UHGV virus genome: UHGV-0291998 | Direction: 5' to 3' (one strand) | Length of the DNA stretch: 12,507 nucleotides | Origin: a virus | Shown here: positions 12,237-12,507 of the stretch, piece by piece | Layout of the letters: every line of letters begins with the position of its first letter | Numbering within the stretch: position 1 is the stretch's first letter | The notes under the pieces: generated by a model | Told to the model about the DNA's origin: nothing | Seen by the model: the letters and a program-made list of their open reading frames with translations, nothing else | Databases searched by the model: none | Translations under genes and position numbers: made by a program

Positions 12237-12291
12237 AAGTTTTATGAGGTTGGCATGCAGACAATCATCTATCAGATAACCCCCAGCAAAT

Positions 12292-12507
12292 GTAAGCGTC
12301 AACGGAGCACCGTATTGACGCTTATTTATTGGTGAGTGCTACGTTCCATGGCAGGAGTTCGTCAACACGGTTGGAAGGCCATTCCGGCAGTACGCTCAGG
12401 ATATGGCGCAGATACGCTTCCGGATCGATACCGTTCAGTCGGCAGGTGCCGATCAGCCCGTACAGTAGCGCACCACGCTCTCCACCGTGATCGCTGCCGA
12501 AGAACAT
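12292..12507 (-). mobile_element. End of an IS66-family insertion sequence; element continues past the window end
   Basis: The terminus begins GTAAGCG (12292..12298), the typical IS66-family end as recalled. A 9-bp inverted repeat AAGCGTCAA/TTGACGCTT lies inside the terminus (12294..12323). The transposase C-terminus is encoded immediately inside. Confidence 0.6.
12322..12507 (-). CDS. IS66-family transposase (TnpC-type), C-terminal part only
   Basis: ...GALLYGLIGTCRLNGIDPEAYLRHILSVLPEWPSNRVDELLPWNVALTNK stop. The LNGIDPEAYLRH...ELLPWN tail is characteristic of IS66 transposases as recalled. The Met at the window edge is coincidental; the frame is open to the edge. Confidence 0.65.
   Translation of the reverse strand: MFFGSDHGGERGALLYGLIGTCRLNGIDPEAYLRHILSVLPEWPSNRVDELLPWNVALTNK

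Follow-up and report, generated by a model that had tools for sequence, protein, structure and literature searches.

An IS66-family terminus in codon 13 of a XisR-type excisionase gene suggests an excision-impaired lambdoid prophage of E. coli

The early region of a lambdoid prophage

The stretch analysed here (virus genome UHGV-0291998, 12,507 nt, hereafter the window) comprises the early region of a lambda-like (lambdoid) E. coli prophage. Its left end runs off within the N-terminal fragment of a NanS-p-like sialate esterase of the SASA family (MSIKHYDVVRAASPSDLAEKL..., 1 to ~510, minus strand), a gene that is multi-copy in Stx-type lambdoid prophages. On the same strand follow the genes for the Q antiterminator (1367-1768; 133 aa, full-length match to PF06530), for a 285-aa protein listed between Q and the primase, for the primase itself (2616-3584) and the helicase (3586-5244), and for a YdaS/Cro-like HTH protein (5929-6267). 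The plus strand opens with a repressor containing an S24-peptidase (autocleavage) domain (6336-7028), behind which lie, in order, a second HTH gene, a ParE-like ORF, the SPFH, ORF6N and DUF4222 genes, a 44-aa ORF and xis. The repressor and the genes leading towards xis and int are thus on one strand, with the cro-like, helicase, primase and Q genes on the opposite strand. By synteny with lambda, the plus-strand block 6336-12292 is a pL-like early-left operon, with xis-int as its distal genes; in relatives, the integrase gene is the only one distal to xis and is followed by attR in mlrA.

From 1172 to 11904 the window is 99.8% identical to a prophage of strain E110019. Where this match ends, at the counterpart of 11904, the E110019 prophage contains an IS3-family element, and its xis-int module is of another type; E110019 was for these reasons rejected as the source of the window. 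Relatives with other integrases (the E110019 type and a type adjoining a DUF72 gene) remain about 99% identical to the window up to 12250 and then diverge, just upstream of the xis ribosome-binding site. The loss of homology at this point therefore marks the xis-int-att cassette as an exchangeable module, of which the window has the mlrA type.

The visible genes for the S24 repressor, helicase, primase and Q look intact. A conserved 189-aa hypothetical early-left protein (11164-11732, plus strand) is broken into ORFs of 119 and 93 aa: compared with L001 and L017, the gene has a 1-nt deletion (G) some 236 nt from its start. L029 shares exactly this frameshift, and the gene is also annotated as frameshifted in E110019. 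As xis and int are intact in L029, this defect is probably older than the IS insertion described below, and its presence means that the prophage was already not pristine. Elsewhere in the operon, a 71-aa ORF and a 72-aa ORF with a ParE-like toxin domain (PF24732, E=3e-17) overlap at the end of the former (8507-8912, plus strand), and the two may form a toxin-antitoxin pair. The interval between the esterase and Q (500-1172) is not collinear with E110019, only a 112-nt piece matching; in E110019 the equivalent region is taken up by a DUF3927 gene together with a TerB-family pseudogene, indicating a further mosaic joint downstream of Q. No tRNA genes were found within the window; related phages have a tRNA-Arg near Q.

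The distal gene is a XisR-type excisionase gene cut after twelve codons

At 12255 on the plus strand, 5 nt behind a GAGG ribosome-binding site (12246-12249), an ORF starts with ATG CAG ACA ATC ATC TAT CAG ATA ACC CCC AGC AAA T, after which the IS begins. This start agrees with that of xisR in RefSeq, position 4156 of L001 corresponding to 12255 of the window. Identity to intact xisR defines 12255-12291 as the 5' remnant of an excisionase gene, made up of codons 1-12 (MQTIIYQITPSK) and the first base of codon 13. The reading frame continues from xis into the IS end as a 26-aa fusion ORF (12255-12335; MQTIIYQITPSK-CKRQRSTVLTLIYW, then a stop), which joins 12 xis codons to 14 IS-derived codons and translates to MQTIIYQITPSKCKRQRSTVLTLIYW; its product is presumably non-functional.

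The identity of the interrupted gene comes from uninterrupted chromosomes. Positions 12100-12292 are identical (193/193) in seven E. coli chromosomes, and homology ends at 12292 in all seven. In one of them, CFSAN029787 (L001), the ATG matching 12255 opens an 84-aa CDS annotated as xisR, 'excisionase family protein', which is followed after a 33-nt gap by a gene for a 428-aa tyrosine integrase at 4444-5730 and then by the host gene mlrA (yehV); the pairwise alignment of this locus with the window diverges directly past ...CAGCAAATG. The closest uninterrupted relative found, L029 (GCA_001285025.1), is 99.2% identical without gaps over 5367-12292 and continues on into xis-int-mlrA. The position of xisR directly upstream of a tyrosine integrase gene at the prophage/att end is common to these relatives (L001, L029 and others) and lies beyond the part visible in the window. 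Their integrase has the domains Arm-DNA-bind_2 (PF12167) and Phage_integrase (PF00589).

Membership of the excisionase family was scored on the intact homologue, which agrees with the window at every position of its first 38 nt and of the sequence upstream, the 12-codon remnant being too short for this purpose. Its 84-aa product matches PF06806, 'Putative excisionase (DUF1233)', with E=2e-29 and 101.4 bits (cut-off 22) over the whole profile (1-70 of 70). The match covers residues 5-74 of the 84, of which the window keeps the first 12. The first-pass annotation had described an ORF at 12255 with a GAGG ribosome-binding site that runs into an IS terminus in the early-left region and is truncated after about 12 codons, and each part of this description holds, to within one additional base. 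It had also proposed that the ORF would continue in frame in uninterrupted relatives and that comparison with such prophages would name the disrupted gene; the frame does continue there, for 84 codons in all, and the gene is that of a XisR-type excisionase (DUF1233).

The interrupting sequence belongs to an IS66-family element and represents its right end

Immediately 3' of the T at 12291 the sequence reads GTAAGCGTCAACGG, beginning with GTAAGCG at 12292, and the window holds 216 nt of this IS before it ends at 12507. A megablast search with 12237-12507 against 5,426 complete E. coli genomes matched 6,224 records, of which the top matches were annotated as IS66-family transposase, and up to 13 matches to the terminal 216 nt were found on a single chromosome. 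The best copy, in E. coli FDAARGOS_943 (L002), is identical to the window at 216 of 216 positions (12292-12507, equivalent to L002 4002-4217), and this identity defines the segment as the right, tnpC-proximal end of the element, with its genes on the minus strand and hence antisense to the phage operon. The complete L002 element measures 2506 bp (4002-6507) and contains tnpA, tnpB and tnpC, the last encoding a TnpC of 530 aa. It is bounded by 24-nt imperfect inverted repeats (GTAAGCGTCAACGGAGCACCGTAT and ATACGGCGGTCAGTTTACGCTTAC, 83% complementarity) and is flanked on both sides by a perfect 8-bp direct repeat, TTTTAGCT.

The terminal inverted repeat in the window, IRR (GTAAGCGTCAACGGAGCACCGTAT, 12292-12315), pairs with the far end of this complete copy. 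It begins with GTAAGCG, as do the terminal repeats of other members of the IS66 family (PMC12888890), and copies of the ISEc23 and IS682 types have the same terminus. When four independent insertion sites were aligned (the window, L002, and one each of the ISEc23 and IS682 types), the flanks were unrelated and identity started at exactly the G of GTAAGCG, which places the IS boundary at 12292. The BLAST match to L002 starts one base earlier, at T 12291; this base was considered as part of the IS and rejected on the strength of the four-site alignment.

On the minus strand, 12325-12507 is an open translation of 61 residues (MFFGSDHGGERGALLYGLIGTCRLNGIDPEAYLRHILSVLPEWPSNRVDELLPWNVALTNK), ending in ...LPWNVALTNK and followed by a stop codon at 12322-12324, so that 12322-12507 comprises the last 61 codons of tnpC and its stop. 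The fragment matches PF13817, 'IS66 C-terminal element' (E=1.3e-17), and partially NCBIfam NF033517 (profile positions 348-385 of 387), and it is identical to the C-terminus of the 530-aa TnpC WP_077124503.1. The full-length protein contains PF03050, PF13817, PF13007 and PF13005 and scores 448 bits against NF033517 (cut-off 180); it is a DDE transposase of the IS66 type, of which the window has the C-terminus only. Both the IS66-family terminus starting with GTAAGCG at 12292 and the minus-strand transposase C-terminus, which had been recognised beforehand from the sequence alone, are thus borne out, the former by the identity to a complete element with its inverted repeats and by the four-site alignment, the latter by the domain matches of the 61 residues.

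The IRR contains a near-perfect hairpin (GTAAGCGTCAA...TTGACGCTTA, followed by TTTATT) at 12292-12330 on the plus strand, directly after the tnpC stop codon. The RNA fold of the first 40 nt of the IS has an energy of -18.7 kcal/mol (z=-4.1), and the hairpin sequence is 100% conserved in ends of the ISEc23 and IS682 types. Such a structure could act as a terminator for tnpC or stop transcription that enters from neighbouring genes. A scan of 11900-12507 for promoter and terminator consensus sequences called none, the IRR hairpin included.

Disruption of xisR is uncommon and the window junction is absent from the collections searched

Among the E. coli records matching xisR, 510 of 517 cover at least 80% of the gene length, so that disruption of this gene is uncommon. 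Some E. coli genomes have up to 4 copies of the window-type xisR. Three different IS events were nonetheless found in the gene, namely the IS66-family element of the window, an IS3-family element and IS1203. The IS3-family element lies near codon 49 of xis in L005 and L008 (6306-7549), with both halves of the gene kept. In O157:H7 NE1127 (L034, 1746-3109), IS1203 adjoins an xisR that has lost its N-terminus, and an ead/Ea22 gene on the other side of the IS is truncated too, indicating that an adjacent deletion occurred. The neighbouring int gene is split by an IS3-family element in L023 (13083-14284). No int gene was called in L003, L011 and L012 despite 99.6-99.9% DNA identity, which makes a point defect likely in these three.

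The junction itself was sought in several collections. No record among the 5,426 complete E. coli genomes covered at least 80% of an 808-nt query spanning it, the exact 36-nt junction pattern was absent from the GTDB representatives, the JGI metagenomes and IMG/VR, and a 21-nt pattern was absent from the GTDB representatives. The far junction predicted for a simple insertion (the IS left end, CAGCAAAT and the rest of xis) was not found in metagenomes. An exact-protein look-up of the 60-aa minus-strand ORF that crosses the IS/xis junction gave none on record; exact look-ups with the 44-aa ORF, the SPFH protein and the 119-aa frameshift product recovered uninterrupted relatives and other IS-disrupted alleles, but never the window junction.

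Discussion

Our analysis makes it very probable that transposition of an IS66-family element has interrupted the excisionase gene, the penultimate gene of the early-left operon, at codon 13, and that the prophage is impaired in its excision as a result. Elements of this family transpose by means of the DDE transposase TnpC and create 8-bp duplications. An element of the 2506-bp type, with tnpA, tnpB and tnpC, would have landed in xis in an orientation antisense to the phage operon. Judging from the TTTTAGCT duplication at the L002 copy, its predicted target site is CAGCAAAT (12284-12291), and simple transposition would predict a far junction that reads GTTTACGCTTAC, CAGCAAAT and GGTGTACAGAG in succession. 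With only 12 codons and one further base of the gene left, and with a Pfam domain that occupies residues 5-74, no functional Xis is to be expected: 72 of the 84 residues, and with them nearly all of the DUF1233 domain, would be out of reading frame. If int is still present, some 2.5 kb of antisense IS, with a stable hairpin at its start, would separate it from the early-left transcript.

What enables a tyrosine integrase to recombine attL with attR is its directionality factor, the excisionase, and lambda Xis is needed for this recombination to be efficient. We infer that excision is strongly reduced and int separated from its transcript in the window prophage. Int-mediated recombination of attL with attR would have to proceed without a directionality factor, leaving the prophage largely locked, or 'grounded' (PMC6379469). 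Given a repressor, replication genes and Q that all look intact, the predicted outcome of SOS induction would be replication in situ rather than productive excision, an expectation modelled on the classical int and xis mutants of lambda. Judging from relatives with this type of module, the integration site of the prophage is likely to be mlrA/yehV. The insertion probably happened recently and marks an early stage in the decay of the prophage, since copies elsewhere have exactly the sequence of this IS end, the other visible parts of the prophage look intact, and the only other defect, the deletion within 11164-11732, is common to relatives with an intact xis.

The IS end might alternatively mark an IS-bounded deletion or rearrangement, through which the remainder of xis, perhaps along with int and attR, has been removed or displaced. 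The view offered by the window stops inside the IS, a precedent exists in the same gene in the IS1203 insertion of O157:H7 NE1127 with its adjacent deletion, and the many IS copies on some chromosomes (up to 13 matches to the terminus) would provide substrates for recombination. That the break falls exactly at the IS terminus does not discriminate between the two scenarios, as both require such a break, but the IS events in xis of L005 and L008 are simple insertions with both halves of the gene retained, and we regard a deletion as rather unlikely, though as a serious alternative. Far less credible is an assembly artefact, in which xis is in truth intact and a short-read contig was erroneously continued into an IS that has many copies. 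Both ends of the window are in multi-copy sequence (the NanS-p-like esterase gene on the left and the IS66-family element on the right), which suggests, without proving it, that the window is an entire short-read contig, and the junction is absent from the complete E. coli genomes, the GTDB representatives, the JGI metagenomes and IMG/VR. However, phage sequence gives way to IS sequence precisely where the terminal inverted repeat begins, a boundary also found in three other independent insertions. A chimeric join depends on shared sequence, of which there are just 1-2 bases here; a genuine insertion, moreover, also yields contigs that end a few hundred bases inside the repeat. These points leave hardly any room for a misassembly.

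A further possibility is a genuine insertion of little consequence for function, excision being achieved by Int alone or with Xis or Int that a related prophage in the same cell provides in trans. Such E. coli commonly have several lambdoid prophages, and some genomes have multiple xisR copies, but the requirement of lambda for Xis, which is well established, runs counter to this idea. So does the finding that XisR of the Rac prophage controls the rate of excision and binds attR (PMC4632033). The prophages Sp4 and Sp14 of O157 Sakai, on the other hand, are still excised and circularised without a functional Xis, apparently by Int alone (PMC2669165), and 'locked' should for this reason be read as 'impaired'. 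On balance, a negligible effect strikes us as improbable, and we retain insertion into xis with impaired excision as the preferred explanation.

The IS family, the gene family and the phenomenon are all already known, and the case is one of ordinary IS-mediated prophage decay: it adds one more example of IS-driven 'grounding' and no new mechanism. Inactivation of genes in the recombination module is a recognised route to locked prophages (PMC6379469; PMC2669165). The main value of the present result lies in annotation and strain biology, as a truncated ORF can now be named as a prophage excisionase gene, with the prediction of poor excision for a prophage whose SOS-cleavable repressor, replication genes and Q are otherwise intact. 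The host gene mlrA encodes an activator of csgD and curli. If the prophage also sits in mlrA, its locking would make the mlrA-occupied state hard to reverse. In STEC, prophage occupancy of mlrA is reported to be linked to reduced biofilm formation (PMC3874044, PMC5931665).

The recurrence of IS events in the mlrA-type xis-int module is a mildly interesting angle. It raises the question of whether xisR of mlrA-integrated lambdoid prophages is a recurrent, positively selected target of IS elements that lock otherwise functional prophages. We consider such selection very doubtful; if it did operate, it would fix the alteration of mlrA imposed by the prophage while retaining the prophage cargo, and SOS-induced replication in situ could amplify or mobilise the flanking chromosome.

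Among known systems, the interrupted gene compares best with XisR (YdaQ) of the Rac prophage of E. coli K-12, which has been shown experimentally to be the Rac excisionase, inducing excision in addition to the activities mentioned above (PMC4632033). The intact homologue of the window gene bears the xisR name in RefSeq, matches PF06806 over its full length and likewise lies immediately upstream of a tyrosine integrase gene at the prophage end. By analogy, the window-type XisR would be expected to stimulate recombination between attL and attR and to bind att DNA. The two differ in that Rac resides in ttcA, whereas the window-type xis allele belongs to prophages integrated in mlrA/yehV, and in that only 12 codons survive in the window. 

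With respect to named IS elements, the IS end is closest to the ISEc23/IS682 group (names assigned by NCBI PGAP). The terminal 50 nt, including the 24-nt IRR GTAAGCGTCAACGGAGCACCGTAT, are identical between this group and the window IS, the C-terminal 61 aa of TnpC differ by a single residue, and the order tnpA-tnpB-tnpC is that of the complete copy of the window-type IS, which shows the 8-bp duplication. Over the full length, however, the complete 2506-bp copy is 87.1% identical in DNA and 89.9% identical in TnpC to the ISEc23 type, and 88.6% identical in both DNA and TnpC to the IS682 type; on the basis of these identities, the window IS is a distinct isoform of the group. The transposase of the identical copy is named by PGAP only as 'IS66 family transposase', and a literature search with the inverted-repeat sequence found nothing relevant. 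Finally, the window has inactivation of the recombination module in common with the 'grounded' or defective lambdoid prophages in which int or xis is disrupted by an IS, such as those of the O157 Sakai pool. The other disruptions of xis involve IS3-family elements, whereas that of the window involves the IS66 family, falls in codon 13 and occurs in a prophage whose other visible parts are largely intact.
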